The notes under the pieces are model-generated. The model made no database searches. It was given only the letters and a program-made list of their open reading frames with translations, and was not told where the DNA came from. From positions 25,356-89,355 of the forward strand of contig JAKPPS010000056.1 of assembly GCA_029547225.1 (NCBI GenBank): 64,000 nucleotides of DNA, in the 5' to 3' direction. Below are positions 2,584 through 60,601 of the stretch, one piece after another. The position numbers and the translations under genes are program-made. Each line of letters begins with the position of its first letter. Within the stretch, counting starts at the first letter, position 1. This DNA comes from a bacterium. Its GTDB lineage: Bacteria; Patescibacteriota; Dojkabacteria; SC72; WJKH01.

Positions 2584-2592
2584 GTTTTTATG

Positions 2593-2642
2593 GTATGCCA
2601 CCAACCGTTTTACCAAACACGCTATCAACCCATGACTACCCA
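2593..2642 (-). repeat. Bipartite conserved motif, copy A (inverted relative to copy B)
   Basis: The plus strand reads GTATGCCACCAA(2593-2604)-N25-CCATGACTACCCA(2630-2642), which is the reverse complement of the arms at 18825-18874. Confidence 0.8.
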
Positions 2643-2738
2643 TGCACTTACTGTTACAAAATCTTATTCACATATTATAAACAAAGCATGAGAAATAGTA
2701 TTAATATTATTAAAAATCGATTGAAGAAATCTCAGTAC

Positions 2739-3902
2739 TTAATTTGAGAGTAGGGCAGAAATCTTTTTTCCAGAAATGTATTTTATGCTGTTGAATATCA
2801 AATATGCTTGACCGCCGAGAAATAATAGTAGGATAAACCAATCCTCAAAATTGTACAGCTCAAATGCTACATAAGTCTCACTCGGTACAAAGAAACTCGG
2901 TATTATTTGGAATAATTGCCCTATCACAGATATGATTGCAATAACGCTAAAAAATAATACAACCCAACCAAGTAGCGGAATTAACCACACTGTTGCAACA
3001 GCAAAGCATAACAATAATATTATTATGAATAGATCAATCTGCTCAGGATATTCGATCATAAACATTGGTATAGTAGCAATCACTATCAACGCTGTATCAA
3101 AAATGTAATCCCAAATCCGTTTATTCCGTCTATTCTTTAGAAGAATGCCATTATTAGTTTCAATTTTACTCAAATCACCATTTTCATCTTTTTTATTAAC
3201 ATTATTTGAAATATTTCGCATCAAATTCCCATCATTATCCTTTTCTAGTATTCCATTAAAAATATCATGCATACTATTTTTTACAGCATCATAATTATCT
3301 TGATTGCAAAAAAGTATGCCAACTCGTCTCCATGAATTATAAAGTGAAATTACCCTTGAGTTTTTATCAAATATTACTTGATCAATATCTGAAAAATTAA
3401 CATATTGTTTCTCCTGAGAGATAGATGTCAAACCTGTACCAACAGCACCTATCTTACCTGAAATTAACCCAAGAGCTACCAATGAACGATTCCCAAATTT
3501 TGCTTTTGAACTTGTAACCTCCATCATGACTCCATTATTATCTAGTGTAAATCGCATCGGCATTTTATTTCCGTAAAAAAGTACCATCACAATTAAAGAA
3601 ACAATGTAAAGTCCTCCAACTATAAGTGTTGTCATTAACATCATTGGTGGTATAGCCTCGATTTCATCCGTACCAACAAAAGTTAGAGTCATCAGTAAGG
3701 CCATTACAAGTCCGGTTATACCAAAGAGTTTGAGCATTTCTGACATAACTATCTTATTTGTAACCAAAGAGACATCTTTTGTCCAAGTAATCTCTCTGAA
3801 ACTTTCTGTTTTCTTAATAGTATTCTTACTACTTTTAGATTTCTTCCCTGCCATTTGTTTTAAACCAAATAACTTAGCTATCGATGATAAATTATCTATC
3901 AT
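2739..3902 (-). CDS. Multi-pass membrane protein, unknown function
   Basis: Long ORF with at least 6 hydrophobic segments and a basic N-terminal tail (KLFGLKQMAGKKSKSSK). No motif recognised. Confidence 0.55.
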   Translation of the reverse strand: MIDNLSSIAKLFGLKQMAGKKSKSSKNTIKKTESFREITWTKDVSLVTNKIVMSEMLKLFGITGLVMALLMTLTFVGTDEIEAIPPMMLMTTLIVGGLYIVSLIVMVLFYGNKMPMRFTLDNNGVMMEVTSSKAKFGNRSLVALGLISGKIGAVGTGLTSISQEKQYVNFSDIDQVIFDKNSRVISLYNSWRRVGILFCNQDNYDAVKNSMHDIFNGILEKDNDGNLMRNISNNVNKKDENGDLSKIETNNGILLKNRRNKRIWDYIFDTALIVIATIPMFMIEYPEQIDLFIIILLLCFAVATVWLIPLLGWVVLFFSVIAIISVIGQLFQIIPSFFVPSETYVAFELYNFEDWFILLLFLGGQAYLIFNSIKYISGKKISALLSN

Positions 3903-18743: not shown

Positions 18744-18824
18744 CCAACTGTATAAGTTCTATCATAGAAATAGCTTCGATTATTGAAGTAGTAACGTACA
18801 CAAGATCATTTATGGCAAAAAGCG

Positions 18825-18874
18825 TGGGTAGTCATGGTGACGGATAATCTTATGCAAGTTGCTTGGTGGCATAC
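18825..18874 (+). repeat. Bipartite conserved motif, copy B (TGGGTAGTCATGG-N25-TTGGTGGCATAC)
   Basis: Exact 13-mer (18825-18837) and 12-mer (18863-18874) separated by 25 nt. The reverse complement of 2593-2642 has identical arms and identical spacing, with an unrelated spacer. Confidence 0.8.
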
Positions 18875-18975
18875 TATGAATTATAATGTATTAGTATTTG
18901 CAAAGAGTGAGATTTATGCGGATGATTTCGTTTGCACAAAAGCTTGCCAATAAATAATATTATAGAAGGAAGGTT

Positions 18976-19801: not shown

Positions 19802-19878
19802 GGACGGCTAGCTCAACTGGTTAGAGCACTTCATTGACATTGAAGAGGTTACAGGTTCAAGTCCTGTGTCGTCCACCA
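19802..19878 (+). tRNA. tRNA-Val (anticodon GAC), CCA encoded
   Basis: Manual cloverleaf: acceptor ggacggc/gtcgtcc, D arm gctc-aactggtta-gagc, anticodon arm cttca-ttGACat-tgaag (GAC at 19836-38), T arm acagg-ttcaagt-cctgt, then discriminator A and CCA. Confidence 0.9.
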
Positions 19879-24273: not shown

Positions 24274-27006
24274 ATGGGAACATTAAGAACAAATAGTAAA
24301 ACCAACCTTCTTGGATATCATGATAAAAGCACCAACAAAGTTGGACTGATGGATCAGGATCAACTTCCAATGCTGATAGATGAAAATTATGCACCGTTTC
24401 TGACAACAAGAGATCATAATTTTGTAATTGCAACACCTGAAATCAAATCAATGATTCAGAATTTTGCTATCACTAAAAATTTTAGGAAGGTTAAAAATAA
24501 TATTGCATCGATATTATTAATCCCTGGTCTTATTATTTCAATAGGTTATATCTTAAAACTGTTTGGATTCTTTGACGATATTTCATTAATAAACAATATA
24601 TTTTCAAATAAATTACTGAATATGTCATTCTGGATAGCTGTACTTGGAATCCTAGTTTTATGGCACGATACTTATCGAAACGAGATACACCCGATACAAT
24701 TACCACAATCGCCCTTAATACCTGAAAAAGAAATTGACCAGATAAAAACGTACGGATTTAAATTCACAAGATATGTAGAACTTGGCACTTGTGGTTTTGT
24801 CTCAGAAGAACTCCAGCAATTTCTCGCTGCAAATACACATGAAGATAATCTCAATTCGCTAAGACTTTTTAATGAACTACTTAAAATTGAAGAGATTGAG
24901 CGAATAATCAAACGATCTAACCTTGATCTAAATCAATCTCAGTATGAAAAATACGATATTAGCAAAGCTACAATACCTGATTATCCTCTGACAGCTGTAA
25001 GATGTTTGCTTACTTATGCGCTCCAAGAAGCAATTTTGACTAAATCACCATCTATCCAGCCTGCTCACATTTTCCTTGCATACTTCAAAGTTTTTCCAAT
25101 CCTCAAAAAATATTTACAATCAAAGAATTCGTCTATAGAGATCATGCGTGAAGTCGAAAGGTATTATCAAGAGGAGAAAAGTCATAATCAAAGCGTAAGT
25201 TTTTTTAATCCTAAAACAAAATATTATCGTACAGGCGGAATAGGGCGAGATTGGATATATGGTTGGACTTATTACCTCGGTAAATTTAGTACAGATTTGA
25301 CTCAAGAAATAATTGGGGTAGATAAAGTATTTGGTATTGGTCATGAAAAAGAGGTCGAGGCAATAGTATCAATTATTGGAAGATTATCAAAAAAAAATAT
25401 ATTATTAATCGGTGAGGCCGGTACAGGTAAATCAAGCCTGATCAAGGGACTGGCACAGAGGATTAACCTCGGGAATGTACCTCCTCAACTTCAAAACAAG
25501 AGGATTATCCAACTTGATCTTACTCAATTGCTTGCTCTCTCAAGTAATGAAAATAACGGCGGAAGTAGTATGGGAGACCAACTTAAAAGAGCACTCGATG
25601 AACTTGCCAAAGCTGGAAACACAATTCTATATATTGATGAGATACAGGAGATAATACCAGCAAAATCAGAGTCAACTGGTCAAAGCATAGCTTCTATAGT
25701 ATTACCATATATTCTGGAAGGAAAATTTCCTGTAATTGGCACGATAAACTATTCTGACTATAAAAAATATTTTTATTCAAATGAATCTTTACGACAAGGT
25801 TTTGAAAATGTTGAAGTAGCAGAACTTTCTCCGAGAGACACTATGTATATTATTGAAAGCCAGATAGATCAACTGGAAGAGAACTATAAACTTTACATTA
25901 CTTTCCCTGCTATTACAGCATCTATTGAATTAGCTCAAAGATATATTTCTAGTCGTAAATTACCTGATAGTGCAGTCAGAGTTATAGAAGCTTCATGTTC
26001 TTGGGCTCAATCTCAAAATATTAAAGTTTTGACCAATGAGCATGTTTCAAAATATATTTCTATACAAACCAATATCCCCGTCGAAAGCATTACAGCCGAA
26101 GAAGCTACTCGCCTTATGAATCTTGAACAAAATATTAAATCAAGAGTAATCGGTCAAGACGAGGCCGTACATGCTATCGTAGAGTCTCTAAAGCGCTCAA
26201 GAACCGATGTAAGAGATCCAAACAAGCCAATCGGTGTATTTTTATTTCTCGGGCCCACAGGTACTGGTAAGACACATTTGGCTAAAGTTATTTCGGAAGA
26301 ATATTTTGGATCTAAAAGCGATATTATCAGGATTGATATGTCAGAATACCAGGACATCAAGAGTATCGACAAATTACTCGGAGTTTCCGGATCAACGGAT
26401 ACATTATCTCAACAAGCTATTTCTCTATTAGATAGAGTAAAATCAAATCCATACACTGTAGTATTATTTGACGAAATAGAAAAGGCGCATCCTCAAATAT
26501 TAGATCTTTTCTTACAACTATTTGATGAAGGTAGATTAACAAGCAATTCTGGTGAAACAGTTAATTTTACAAACACAATTATCATATCAACAAGTAATAT
26601 CGGAAGCAGATTATTACTTGAAGCTCTACAAAAAGATCGTTCATTGTGGGAAGAAGCAAAGGGTAGGGCAATAATTGAACTCCGCCAAGCCATTCGTCCT
26701 GAATTGCTAAATAGATTTGATGGAGTAATTGTATTCGCTCCACATACAATACAAAATCTTATTAAGATTACTGAAATCCTATTAAACGAAATGGCCAAAA
26801 GAATGCTCGAGAAATCTATCACACTTAAGTGGGATAATACCATTCCTATGATTATTGCTGATAAAGCACAGGAACCGGGACTTGGTGCAAGACCTTTAAA
26901 AAGATTTATTCAGGAGAAAATTGAAGGAAAGCTTGCAACGGAAATTATATCCGGCAGCATCAAAAACGGCGATACAGTTGACATACGTGAGAGCTGGTTA
27001 AACTAG
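24274..27006 (+). CDS. Double-ring Clp/Hsp100-family AAA+ ATPase with N-terminal transmembrane segments
   Basis: D1 has Walker A GEAGTGKSS and Walker B ILYIDEIQEI. D2 has GPTGTGKTHLAK, VVLFDEIEKAHP and ARPLKRFIQ. There is no long ClpB-type middle domain, and I see no IGF/LGF-type ClpP-docking tripeptide. Two hydrophobic helices lie near the N-terminus (IASILLIPGLIISIGYILKLFGFF; MSFWIAVLGILVLW). Confidence 0.8.
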   Translation: MGTLRTNSKTNLLGYHDKSTNKVGLMDQDQLPMLIDENYAPFLTTRDHNFVIATPEIKSMIQNFAITKNFRKVKNNIASILLIPGLIISIGYILKLFGFFDDISLINNIFSNKLLNMSFWIAVLGILVLWHDTYRNEIHPIQLPQSPLIPEKEIDQIKTYGFKFTRYVELGTCGFVSEELQQFLAANTHEDNLNSLRLFNELLKIEEIERIIKRSNLDLNQSQYEKYDISKATIPDYPLTAVRCLLTYALQEAILTKSPSIQPAHIFLAYFKVFPILKKYLQSKNSSIEIMREVERYYQEEKSHNQSVSFFNPKTKYYRTGGIGRDWIYGWTYYLGKFSTDLTQEIIGVDKVFGIGHEKEVEAIVSIIGRLSKKNILLIGEAGTGKSSLIKGLAQRINLGNVPPQLQNKRIIQLDLTQLLALSSNENNGGSSMGDQLKRALDELAKAGNTILYIDEIQEIIPAKSESTGQSIASIVLPYILEGKFPVIGTINYSDYKKYFYSNESLRQGFENVEVAELSPRDTMYIIESQIDQLEENYKLYITFPAITASIELAQRYISSRKLPDSAVRVIEASCSWAQSQNIKVLTNEHVSKYISIQTNIPVESITAEEATRLMNLEQNIKSRVIGQDEAVHAIVESLKRSRTDVRDPNKPIGVFLFLGPTGTGKTHLAKVISEEYFGSKSDIIRIDMSEYQDIKSIDKLLGVSGSTDTLSQQAISLLDRVKSNPYTVVLFDEIEKAHPQILDLFLQLFDEGRLTSNSGETVNFTNTIIISTSNIGSRLLLEALQKDRSLWEEAKGRAIIELRQAIRPELLNRFDGVIVFAPHTIQNLIKITEILLNEMAKRMLEKSITLKWDNTIPMIIADKAQEPGLGARPLKRFIQEKIEGKLATEIISGSIKNGDTVDIRESWLN

Positions 27007-57321: not shown

Positions 57322-60300
57322 ATGGAAATAAATCACAAAACAATAAGAATCTCGGCCCAAAAAGATGACCAGATTGTAAACAATACATTAGATATTGAAA
57401 ACACAGAGGATATTGAAAAAAACCAAACTGCCAACGATGCAGAAACTGGACTAAGAAAAGAGATTCTCAATCGTGCAATGGATAGTACAGACTCAGAGGA
57501 AAAAGCTGATAGTGTTAGCGACGATAACAGCAATGGAGATGACGGAAATATAAAAGACGGAAGCATAAATAATGACGATGGAGATGACAATGGCACAATA
57601 AACAGTGCCAACATAGAAACTCAGATTGATCCTGTAGAAAAAGGTGATGTAACCAATGAAGATTTGACAGACGACCTAGTACAGCTTTCATTCACACCAG
57701 GTGAGATTATAAATCGTTCAATAGCGGAGGAAATGCGCAAAAATTATCTCGACTATTCTATGTCCGTTATAGTTTCTAGAGCTTTACCAGATGTAAAAGA
57801 TGGTCTCAAACCATCTCAGCGTAGGATTTTAGTTGCCATGAACGATCTTAATCTTACTCCAAGCGCCCACTTCAGGAAATCAGCAAAAATCGCTGGAGAT
57901 ACAACAGGTAACTACCACCCACATGGTGACCAAGTTATATATCCAACTATGGTTAAATTGGCTCAAGATTTCTCTGTACGATACACATTGGTTAATGGAC
58001 AAGGAAACTTTGGTTCGATCGATGGAGATATGCCAGCAGCAATGCGTTACACTGAAGCTAAAATGACGAAGATAACCCTCGAAATGCTTCGAGATCTTGA
58101 TAAAGGTACAGTAACTTTCTCTCCAAACTATGATGCAACTCGAGTTGAACCAAATTATTTGCCAACTCTCTTTCCAAATCTGATTTGTAATGGAAGCGAT
58201 GGTATCGCTGTAGGTATGGCAACAAAAATACCTGCTCATAACCTTGGTGAAGTTGTAGACGCACTTCGCGCAATGATCGAGCAAGGAAACAAATGGAAGG
58301 GTAAAGCTATCTACAATTCATTGAGATTAGCACGAGAAGGAAATGAAATAATACCAAAGGTTTTAAACTCTACACCCGCTGATTTCTATGAAAATTATGT
58401 CCCAGAAAATGAATTGGACAGAGAAGCAAAAGTTGAACAAATCAAATCACAGTTACATGATGAGAATGGCGAAGAGGCTGTAAAACTATACCCTGAATTT
58501 GAGACAGACCTTACAAACCAAGATATTATGAAATATATTCCAGGGCCAGATTTTCCAACAGGCGGTATTATTTACGATAAGGCTGAGATATTAAATGCTT
58601 ACACAACAGGACGAGGCAGGATACTTACTCGAGCTCGAGCTTCGATAGAAGAAGGAAAGGGCGGAAGATTCCATATTATTGTTACAGAAATTCCTTACCA
58701 GGTAAATAAATCTGTGCTTATCACAAACATTGCAGATCTTGTAAAAGATAAACGCATAGAGGGTATCGCAGATATCAGAGATGAATCAAACCGAGAAGGC
58801 ATGCGTATAGTTATTATCCTCAAAAAGGATGTACAACCGAAAGTAATTTTGAACAAGTTGTACAAGTATTCTGCTTTGCAAAATGCATTTAATGCAAACA
58901 TGATTTCTCTCGTTGACGGAGAGCCAGAATTATTGAGCATGACAAGGATGCTTGAATTATTCTTAGGCCACAGATTAGCTGTAGTGATAAGAAGATATGA
59001 GTTTGAATTGGCACAAAATCGCTATGAAGGGCATATTTTGGCAGGACTACTTAAAGCACTTGATCTACTTGACGAGATTATTGCTATGATAAGAGCTTCG
59101 AAAACGCAAGAAGATGCAAAAACAAACCTTATCTCGAAATTTGAATTTACTGAAGTACAAGCCCAAGCAATTTTAGAAATGCAGTTGCGTAAACTTGCTG
59201 CACTAGAACGACAGAAACTTGAAGATCGTAACAAAGAAATTTTAGCAGCAATTGAAAGTCATAATAAAATATTAAGCGACCAGGCAGAAATATTAAAGGT
59301 AGTTGATCAAGAATTGGCATTGCTCAAAGAGAAACATGGCGATCCGAGAAGGACAAAAGTTGTAGCTGGCAAAGTTGATGATATTTCTGAAGAGGATACT
59401 GTAGCTTCTGAAGAAACATTTATCAACATCAGTCGATCAGGATACATCAAACGATTATCACCAGACACCTATCGAGTACAAAAAAGAGGTGGCAAGGGGG
59501 TTATTGGAGCTACTACAAAAGAAGACGATTACATCCAACATGCTCTTTCATGCAATACTCATGATGAACTATTCTTGTTTACAAACAAAGGTAAGGTCTT
59601 TAACATCAAGGCTTACCAGATACCAGAATCTAGTCGTACTGCAAAAGGTATCCCGATAGTCAATCTTGTCCAGATAGAGCAGGGTGAGATAGTAACTGGA
59701 GTACTTAATAAAGATAGCAAGAGCCTAGATAAAGACTCAAAGAAGCCGAAATATCTATTTATGGCTACGGAAAAAGGTGTTGTCAAGAAAACAGAGCTTA
59801 CTGAGTTTGGAAACATCAGAGCTAGCGGCCTTATTGCAATAAAACTTGATCCAGGTGATGAGTCAAAATGGGTTGCAACAACAAGTGGAGAAGACGATAT
59901 TATCTTGATAACCAAAAAAGGAAAATGCATAAGATTTAGTGAAGCAGATGTAAGACCAATGGGCAGAAATACTCGAGGCGTTACAGGTATCAAATTCAAA
60001 TCTTCAGATGATTGCGTGATTTCTATGAGCAAAATCGAGGCAAAAGAAGTAGAAGATCGCAAAGTTTTGACAATATCTGAAAATGCTTTCGGTAAAACAA
60101 CTTCATTAAGTAATTATGAAAAGCAACGAAGAGGTGGTACAGGATTATTTACATTTAGAGTGACGCCAAAGACAGGAAATCTAGTAGTCACACGCGTAAT
60201 CGATCCTAGTGACCCAGAAATAGTCGTTATGTCAACTCGAGGACAAGTTATCAGAGCAGAGTTAAAAGCAATACCTGACTATGTAAATCGACAAACTTCT

Positions 60301-60399
60301 GGTGTACGTATTATGAATATGCATGAAGGTGACACCGTTGCTGCAATTGCAATATTACCTCCAACTCAGGAAGATGAATCACCTATCAGTGAAGGATAA
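57322..60399 (+). CDS. gyrA: DNA gyrase subunit A with an acidic N-terminal extension of about 125 aa and an internal insertion
   Basis: YLDYSMSVIVSRALPDVKDGLKPSQRRIL, catalytic Tyr context AAMRYTEAKM, and C-terminal beta-pinwheel repeats. Confidence 0.95.
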   Translation: MEINHKTIRISAQKDDQIVNNTLDIENTEDIEKNQTANDAETGLRKEILNRAMDSTDSEEKADSVSDDNSNGDDGNIKDGSINNDDGDDNGTINSANIETQIDPVEKGDVTNEDLTDDLVQLSFTPGEIINRSIAEEMRKNYLDYSMSVIVSRALPDVKDGLKPSQRRILVAMNDLNLTPSAHFRKSAKIAGDTTGNYHPHGDQVIYPTMVKLAQDFSVRYTLVNGQGNFGSIDGDMPAAMRYTEAKMTKITLEMLRDLDKGTVTFSPNYDATRVEPNYLPTLFPNLICNGSDGIAVGMATKIPAHNLGEVVDALRAMIEQGNKWKGKAIYNSLRLAREGNEIIPKVLNSTPADFYENYVPENELDREAKVEQIKSQLHDENGEEAVKLYPEFETDLTNQDIMKYIPGPDFPTGGIIYDKAEILNAYTTGRGRILTRARASIEEGKGGRFHIIVTEIPYQVNKSVLITNIADLVKDKRIEGIADIRDESNREGMRIVIILKKDVQPKVILNKLYKYSALQNAFNANMISLVDGEPELLSMTRMLELFLGHRLAVVIRRYEFELAQNRYEGHILAGLLKALDLLDEIIAMIRASKTQEDAKTNLISKFEFTEVQAQAILEMQLRKLAALERQKLEDRNKEILAAIESHNKILSDQAEILKVVDQELALLKEKHGDPRRTKVVAGKVDDISEEDTVASEETFINISRSGYIKRLSPDTYRVQKRGGKGVIGATTKEDDYIQHALSCNTHDELFLFTNKGKVFNIKAYQIPESSRTAKGIPIVNLVQIEQGEIVTGVLNKDSKSLDKDSKKPKYLFMATEKGVVKKTELTEFGNIRASGLIAIKLDPGDESKWVATTSGEDDIILITKKGKCIRFSEADVRPMGRNTRGVTGIKFKSSDDCVISMSKIEAKEVEDRKVLTISENAFGKTTSLSNYEKQRRGGTGLFTFRVTPKTGNLVVTRVIDPSDPEIVVMSTRGQVIRAELKAIPDYVNRQTSGVRIMNMHEGDTVAAIAILPPTQEDESPISEG

Positions 60400-60601
60400 A
60401 TTGCATAAAATGGTAATGGTAAACTAGCAAAGGTATTTCGAAAGATAGGAGAAGTCCAGGCTATTAAAAAATGTGCAGAATATTGGTGCTATGTAAAGCG
60501 ATTTTATTGCAATGGTACAAGATAATGCCACAGTGACGGCATGGTTACATAAAAATTGGTACATATATAGGTACATAGATGAATTTATTGTAAAATAGGT
60601 T

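Follow-up and report, generated by a model that had tools for sequence, protein, structure and literature searches.

The REP, BIME and REPIN sequences of Proteobacteria, known from the work of Gilson, of Nunvar, and of Bertels & Rainey, are tight, imperfect palindromes with a stem of 12-15 bp, a short loop and a conserved 5' GTAG that are present in hundreds of copies; in REPINs the inverted doublet is the replicating unit, and the gene for the cognate RAYT, a Y1 transposase, is flanked by repeats. The BOX, RUP and Correia/NEMIS elements of Gram-positives and Neisseria are MITE-like, with terminal inverted repeats, target-site duplications and near-identical copies. Multi-copy sibling small RNA (sRNA) families are a further class, as are protein-handle RNAs such as CRISPR repeat hairpins and Y RNA stems with their bulged helix. 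Invertible segments, of the hix/gix type or served by tyrosine recombinases, are marked by an inverted pair of sites, an adjacent recombinase and the occurrence of both orientations in populations. The Patescibacteria (CPR) have small uncultured genomes and, to our knowledge, almost nothing is known of their noncoding RNAs or repeats; nor do we know of any described bacterial counterpart to a system of RNAs with a handle plus a variable region in a CPR genome of ~1 Mb. TIGR arrays and Tas proteins have been reported in CPR bacteria (Patescibacteria) and phages, the TIGR units standing in tandem arrays beside a Nop-domain gene and being processed to 36-nt RNAs (PMC12045711).

Here, we report that two copies of a bipartite motif in a 64,000-nucleotide stretch of DNA (hereafter the window) are members of a previously undescribed, lineage-specific family of intergenic hairpins of ~85-90 nt. 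The element is a new, lineage-specific case of a familiar class, that of interspersed intergenic hairpins or sRNA families. Like REP, BIME and REPIN sequences, it is short, multi-copy and strictly intergenic, with conserved inverted arms flanking a less conserved spacer; it likewise occurs both singly and in inverted doublets composed of two subtypes, is lineage-specific and independent of gene orientation, and has a long history of vertical inheritance. Unlike them, the Dojkabacteria element has a 9-bp bulged stem, a 25-28-nt loop and a conserved 30-nt leader, GTAG is not family-wide, copies number in the tens rather than the hundreds, and no RAYT was found among the ORFs scanned; wobble pairs that are exclusively G.U and the in-situ divergence of orthologs also fit an RNA under selection. 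With BOX, RUP and Correia/NEMIS it has in common an interspersed unit of ~100 nt whose end modules are conserved and whose middle varies, and which can fold as RNA and may affect neighbouring transcripts, whereas its leader and tail are not inverted repeats and its copies are old and divergent. It resembles sibling sRNAs and handle RNAs in combining an invariant bulged helix with variable adjacent sequence, and in having several paralogs per genome placed independently of their neighbours. It differs from them in that no partner protein, promoter, terminator, target complementarity or Rfam match was found, and in that the units stand scattered one by one instead of forming arrays. The edge and loop repeats of TIGR arrays are similarly conserved and interleaved with short variable segments (PMC12045711), but the Dojkabacteria elements are solitary units of ~85 nt beside housekeeping genes; no Tas-like protein was recognised in the flanking translations, and no Nop-domain match was obtained in the window ORFs scanned.

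Motif copies in the window

The motif TGGGTAGTCATGG-N25-TTGGTGGCATAC occurs at 18825-18874 on the plus strand (copy A) and at 2593-2642 on the minus strand (copy B), exactly where the first-pass annotation had placed two inverted copies with 25-nt spacers. Direct comparison reproduced its observation that the spacers agree at 8 of 25 positions. The arms had been judged non-random, and two matches were indeed counted in the window vs 0.00 expected from 100 dinucleotide-preserving shuffles, which, together with the existence of the family, rules out a chance match or a duplication remnant. Likeness between the copies runs beyond the motif for ~30 nt upstream (YGTR...AAGAT...GC.TGGG) and for a few nucleotides downstream (CATACYATRAA). 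The parts of each element are listed in Table 1.

Copy A occupies the tig-clpP spacer, its arm 1 starting 82 nt past the tig stop (18743). No T-run or terminator was found after its arm 2, and within its loop GGUGAC and GUUGCU, as read from the sequences, are able to lengthen the stem. Copy B separates a minus-strand membrane-protein ORF (2739-3902) from a TatD gene (1669-2583) that converges with it, so that both 3' ends face the element; arm 1 starts 97 nt past the stop of the former, and arm 2 ends 9 nt from the stop of the latter. We also identified a third, diverged member in the gyrA-VanY spacer, with a score of 15.4 bits (E=0.094) under covariance model R1 and an nhmmer match to the U-type HMM described below (E=2.2e-4 for 60491-60554). 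Because one of its inner pairs is broken (C x A), this member is a weak or decaying copy. All three window copies stand 52-72 nt past a co-directional gene (tig, the membrane-protein gene and gyrA, respectively). The GyrA ORF itself (57322-60399, plus strand) encodes 1025 aa, with the DNA_topoisoIV domain matched in two stretches; it is longer than usual and may contain an insertion.

Table 1. Elements of the family in the window, part by part (window positions).
Feature	Position	Strand	Basis
Copy A leader (CGTACACAAGATCATTTATGGCAAAAAGCG)	18795..18824	+	Leader alignment across the whole family
Copy A arm 1 (TGGGTAGTCATGG), 5' strand of helix P1	18825..18837	+	Paired in the minimum free energy (MFE) structure
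Copy A loop, 25 nt, 5' half TGACGGATAATCTT	18838..18862	+	5' half common to the U-type family
Copy A arm 2 (TTGGTGGCATAC+T), 3' strand of P1, bulged A18870	18863..18875	+	MFE structure, pair counts
Copy A A/T-rich tail (ATGAATTATAAT)	18876..18887	+	A-rich tail in most copies
Copy B leader (TGTGAATAAGATTTTGTAACAGTAAGTGCA)	2643..2672	-	Aligns to the U-type leader ATGTGAAT...
Copy B arm 1	2630..2642	-	Covariance model R1, E=1.2e-10 for 2589-2642
Copy B loop, 25 nt, containing a small hairpin of its own (CGUGUUU-GGU-AAAACG)	2605..2629	-	Folding
Copy B arm 2 (TTGGTGGCATAC+C)	2592..2604	-	Sequence, folding
Third, diverged member (U-type-like)	60472-60556	+	Intergenic, gyrA-VanY spacer
Third member, leader (TGTGCAGAA...)		+	
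Third member, arm 1 (TTATTGCAATGG)	60504-60515	+	
Third member, loop, 26 nt		+	
Third member, arm 2 (TGGTTACATAA), then an A-run	60542-60552	+	

A dispersed intergenic family

A scan of metagenomic contigs (JGI/ENA) with slightly trimmed arms as the query returned 39 loci (given L numbers here, as are other loci compared). We judged 29 to be real members and 10 to be chance matches, the latter lying in coding-looking, G+C-rich or unrelated sequence or consisting of one unrelated sequence repeated. The 29 real loci correspond to about 22 distinct sites, all of them intergenic, so that the search in relatives yielded the further copies that the first-pass annotation expected of a functional element. 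The family unit of ~85-90 nt comprises a leader of 30-34 nt, arm 1, a loop of 25-28 nt, arm 2 and, in most copies, an A-rich tail with the consensus CATACCATAAA. Leaders start with YGTG and contain RAGGTAAT or AAGAT (summary pattern YGTG..GGTAAT); in the alignment across members, YGTR stands at about -33 and RAGRT at about -25. Most copies belong to a type that we term D-main, which has the loop motif ATTGGAACGCAAT in common, and the window copies, L011, L031 and L126 make up a subtype with different loops, the loop of copy A containing TGACGGATAATCTT. The earlier description of a conserved stem around a variable loop holds insofar as the loop is free to vary, and needs amending in that most members have a loop motif in common. 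The leader motif GGGTAAT(C) resembles GGGTAGT(C) of arm 1, a repetition within the unit that is seen, for example, at L033:683-790 (minus strand). A truncated or degenerate D copy at L037:6155-6209 (minus strand) has an intact leader and arm 1 and a decayed arm 2 (GCATGGTGTCAAGAC).

One contig of 121 kb and another of 76 kb each carried three copies, and the density is about one member per 15-30 kb. The two window copies had been taken for a special inverted pair; they are instead members of a dispersed family that occurs in either orientation. An ORF scan of the ~22 sites found 9 with a co-directional and 11 with a convergent downstream gene; at least three are flanked by divergent genes, and about 9 of the 22 have no co-directional upstream gene; copies at L019, L042 and L031/L043 are antisense to both neighbours. 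The orientation of the element is arbitrary relative to neighbouring genes, and its distance to the downstream start varies from 50 to 191 nt. The first-pass annotation placed both window copies 80-95 nt past a same-strand stop, a placement that does not extend to the family across the ~22 sites. Flanking translations identify the neighbours as ordinary housekeeping genes (among them dnaN, efp, rplL, rpsG, murA/D, dnaG, hrcA, tig and clpP), with no gene family recurring besides those at orthologous loci. A tmRNA gene at L030:1308-1736 (minus strand) lies ~1.1 kb from a doublet of the kind described below.

Hairpin structure

The pairing of the arms proposed in the first-pass annotation, GGUA/UACY and GUCAU/GUGGC with a bulged A, is the closing helix of the MFE structure in all eight hairpins folded. 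This helix, P1, consists of 4 bp, the bulged A and 5 bp, with G.U pairs, and encloses a 25-28-nt apical region. Hairpin stability was modest, with z-scores from -0.5 to -2.9, mostly -0.5 to -1.2, and one at +0.13. In the combined alignment of the D type and its sister U type, 89.3% of cells at the nine pairs are paired, a share that falls to 31-56% if the 3' partner is shifted by 1-3 columns. At pair 10-47, 15 sequences have C-G, 11 have A-U and none is unpaired, and at pairs 5-53 and 7-51 both sides change between sequences. All 53 of the 53 wobble cells are G.U on the strand of the element and none is A.C, and 89% of cells are paired on this strand vs 67% on the other, in agreement with the earlier remark that the G-U pairs favour it. 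The element is hence a hairpin with compensatory, strand-specific pairing.

The compensatory changes reflect a small number of independent events, in essence the divergence of the D family from the U family. Within the D family no column covariation was found, because its arms are invariant. This invariance is partly a matter of ascertainment, the search having used exact arms; a search of about 300 kb of flanking DNA with an HMM, however, recovered only one extra copy, truncated and degenerate, and the invariance is therefore not just ascertainment. No conserved structure was found besides P1. We rejected a pseudoknot between leader and loop, since cognate duplex energies were no better than non-cognate ones (median rank 0.55), and an outer helix between the leader and the 3' tail, whose cognate pairing was likewise no better than non-cognate (Wilcoxon p=0.66). 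Invariance of a helix in sequence is unusual for a structural RNA and equally expected for a DNA hairpin recognised by a protein.

A sister family and doublets

Many D-main copies are preceded by a module of ~90 nt (TATATAACCATGCGCTGATTTTCAAGATTATCCGTCACCATTACAATCC...GATTACCCGATTCACA), which we term U. Its reverse complement reads leader TGTGAATCGGGTAAT..., arm 1' GGATTGTAATGG, loop TGACGGATAATCTT... and arm 2' TGGTTAYATAA followed by an A-run. U and D units have the same layout and are homologous over their full length, leader included. An HMM built from U units alone matches copy A at 18794-18867 (E=2.8e-6), covering leader, arm 1, loop and arm 2, and the first 14 nt of the copy A loop equal the U-type loop. 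Solitary U units were found at L014:5939-6030 and L042:7338-7429, both on the minus strand; by coordinate arithmetic, the former lies about 3 kb to the left of the window start on the contig of copy B. The U-type sister family thus exists on its own, also in the genome of the window. As a separate observation, the leader of U-type units contains CGGGTAATCTT and their loop CGGATAATCTT, which form a direct repeat ~37 nt apart.

Where U and D units occur together they stand head-to-head, 18-38 nt apart. Six such doublets at unrelated loci, L033:590-795 (minus strand), L007, L015, L017, L028 and L040, have the same AT-rich 19-nt spacer (T..GTGT.T.TTAT.A..T), with -10-like boxes on both strands. 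Sharing of this spacer among unrelated loci suggests that units have probably also been copied as blocks; the spacer might serve as a compact promoter for divergent transcription, or it might reflect block-wise spread. The two halves of a doublet are about 55-60% alike, as read from alignments, and a long U:D hairpin across the doublet is weakly favoured (z from -2.6 to +0.8, with a mean of about -0.9 for nine).

Orthologous loci, clade and age

The window Tig is named trigger factor of Candidatus Dojkabacteria by NCBI. An identical ClpP was found in metagenomic contigs from anaerobic digesters and in one NCBI MAG, and the best ClpP relatives among GTDB species representatives, several of them Patescibacteria, are 63-65% identical. 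The G+C content is 32-38%. The exact arms are absent from the GTDB representative genomes, the family was not found in other Patescibacteria, and the covariance model gave no match in L127-L129 or in 12 further loci, most of which come from other Patescibacteria. A phage origin was rejected, neither arm set having a copy in IMG/VR. Since orthologous copies exist in several species and those further loci gave no match, the family is old enough to be held in common by several species and is confined to a narrow clade of Candidatus Dojkabacteria.

L031 and L043 represent one locus, found in two species; the proteins encoded on either side of it are 69-97% identical. Between the two, the arms and the beginning of the tail are unchanged, whereas the leader, the loop and the remaining spacer differ for the most part and align poorly. 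In the ortholog of copy A in L126, where Tig is 67% identical, the arms are unchanged, the leader is similar and part of the loop has been rewritten; one loop change, GGUGAC to GGUGGC (A-U to G.U), keeps the pairing with GUUGCU. Variants of the copy A locus within the species cluster downstream of the element and not inside it, and strains differ less between the tig stop and the end of the element than in the remaining spacer. The arms are under purifying selection at orthologous loci. In L129 (Tig 39% identical), tig and clpP are 18 nt apart. In the tig-clpP spacer of L127 (Tig 51% identical; L127:11071-11299), a leader-like stretch is kept and the place of the arms is taken by two unrelated perfect hairpins, GGATCCT-CAGTGC-AGGATCT and TTCCTG-AAGT-CAGGAA.

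Comparison with known element classes

At gathering threshold, Rfam models matched only tRNAs and one tmRNA in the window and about 240 kb of family loci, the latter accounting for the tmRNA and a dozen or so tRNAs, and at E<=1 on eight loci nothing was matched at the elements. A known RNA family (T-box, riboswitches, ribozymes or known sRNAs) was accordingly rejected, there being no Rfam covariance-model match at any copy. A tRNA-like gene was likewise rejected, ARAGORN finding only the tRNA-Val at 19802. Intrinsic terminators have a G+C-rich stem, a short loop and a T-run; no terminator-like site was found around either copy, and the tail is A-rich on the folding strand. Sigma-70 promoter-like matches at the arms were not consistently positioned. 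No consistently placed promoter was found at the leaders either, where, amid AT-rich sequence, -10-like boxes occur at 0-7 nt from the YGTG start. A small protein gene was discarded after manual translation, every frame being stopped in some copies; loop lengths of 25, 26 and 27 nt shift the reading frame between the arms, which are invariant at the nucleotide level.

MITEs carry terminal inverted repeats at their ends and a target-site duplication, whereas the ends of this element are the YGTG leader and the A-rich tail, its inverted arms are internal, and orthologous copies have diverged in place. Integron attC sites have R''(RYYYAAC)/R'(GTTRRRY) core sites and form cassette arrays beside intI; the arms lack such cores, and the copies are solitary between housekeeping genes. 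Both classes were rejected. Complementarity of the variable parts to other positions in the window was limited to chance AT-rich 11-14-mers, the best of them at 26750, inside a 910-aa ORF (24274-27006) that is clpB from its size and the annotation of its neighbours. GC skew in the window tracks the strand of the genes and gives no information on any replication-linked orientation. A literature search for the arm sequences returned unrelated primers only, and one on Patescibacteria noncoding RNA returned only the TIGR-Tas paper (PMC12045711), whose arrays differ.

Discussion

Quite possibly, the elements are small structured RNAs in which the helix is a handle for recognition by a protein, and we tentatively favour this reading. 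Each element would act as RNA on the strand given here, as an sRNA or RNA module expressed independently of its neighbours, and the invariant, bulged, wobble-rich helix would be the docking site of a lineage-specific RNA-binding protein or nuclease, with leader and loop differing between loci and subfamilies. The strand-specific hairpin, the compensation between subfamilies, the conservation of the helix against the divergence of loop and leader, and the indifference to gene orientation point to single-stranded reading on that strand, most simply as an independently transcribed RNA. The helix is invariant, its bulged A is fixed and its G.U pairs have not drifted to G-C, which suggests that it is read by a specific protein. 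From these features we infer transcription, a promoter belonging to the element, a protein reader of the helix and a role for the RNA. Against an sRNA count the modest stability and the lack of a placed promoter and of a terminator, and dozens of loci for a single sRNA family would be unusual in a reduced genome. A version with dozens of independent sRNAs, each with the same handle and a locus-specific, guide- or scaffold-like leader and loop, seems decidedly improbable.

The main rival, which we regard as doubtful, is a REP/BIME/REPIN-like DNA repeat, selfish or domesticated, whose single-stranded hairpin would be read by a transposase-like enzyme such as a RAYT, and which would have spread as singlets and inverted doublets and then been inherited vertically. 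Such a repeat would explain why the element is multi-copy, strictly intergenic, lineage-restricted and present in either orientation, with conserved inverted arms around a less conserved spacer, and it accommodates the frequent head-to-head U/D doublets (including the six at unrelated loci with the same 19-nt spacer), the existence of a truncated copy, the GTAG within arm 1 of the D type (GGGTAGTC) and the strand-specific G.T pattern, which would also suit a hairpin of single-stranded DNA. That GTAG, however, is missing from the homologous U arm (GGATTGTA; U-type GGATTGTAATGG), a stem of 9 bp plus a bulge with a 25-28-nt loop is not a REP-type palindrome, and the conserved leader of 30 nt is without counterpart in REPs. 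The doublet halves are only about 55-60% alike, their long hairpin is weak, and copies at orthologous sites have diverged in situ, which indicates age rather than recent mobility. Pfam detected no transposase in 20 window ORFs, none was recognised in the flanking translations, and the density of the element is low. Reading by a protein in double-stranded form, as a site of ~85 bp with short boxes that serves nucleoid organisation, as a roadblock or as an insulator, is quite unlikely. It agrees with boxes that are invariant in sequence and not merely complementary, with conserved motifs spaced along the unit (GTG-N5-GGTAAT, arm 1, GATAWT, arm 2), and with a placement that is orientation-independent, intergenic only and kept at orthologous positions, but it leaves unexplained both the compensatory C-G to A-U differences between arms and the occurrence of G.T on one strand and never A.C. 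Half-sites are moreover kept asymmetric, which a symmetric dimer site does not need, and a loop length that varies between 25 and 28 bp would alter the rotational phasing of the boxes.

The settings of the window copies invite two further explanations. A cis-acting mRNA element, either a stabiliser or processing site in the 3' UTR or a 5' leader, for instance of heat-shock genes, is suggested by the three window copies shortly past co-directional genes, by copies that, from flanking translations, precede clpP, hsp20 or ctc or adjoin hrcA, and by the lower variability between the tig stop and the element across strains. It is nevertheless unlikely: many sites are without a co-directional upstream gene, 11 of 20 face a convergent gene, several copies (L019, L042 and L031/L043) are antisense to both neighbours, distances to the downstream start are widely scattered, and there is no terminator-like tail. 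The first-pass annotation also raised the idea that the copies mediate inversion. To recombination sites that would invert the 16.2-kb segment between copies A and B, for which the inverted orientation of the two copies is the sole support, we give next to no credence. Copies A and B are members of a family dispersed in both orientations throughout, their identity covers only 13 + 12 nt, and no recombinase was found in the 20 window ORFs scanned, which include the majority of those lying between A and B. All six assemblies among the matches listed with identical ClpP have the junction tig|element|clpP, and an inverted arrangement was not seen in any assembly among those matches; the same junction recurs in the species with 67% Tig identity (L126), and the order PPDK...sortase-tig-clpP is kept in three related species (L126, L127 and L129).

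Whichever agent reads it, the family fills many intergenic spacers of a reduced genome, and the constancy of 25 arm nucleotides across species amid freely diverging spacer implies a dedicated reader, protein or RNA. If the elements are RNAs, they would constitute a new RNA family with a defined protein-binding helix usable in pull-downs; if they are REP-like, symbioses of repeat and transposase would extend to CPR. Such elements were undescribed in this CPR lineage, and the conserved helix is a direct experimental handle. In practical terms, the idea of an invertible 16-kb segment is removed, and the covariance model and two arm signatures are available for annotating genomes of the clade. As a minor observation, the tRNA-Val at 19802-19878 (plus strand) has an encoded CCA end, and UGGUGG of arm 2 is complementary to the tRNA 3'-terminal CCACCA (duplex -11.9 kcal/mol), a complementarity that is generic for tRNAs starting with GG.
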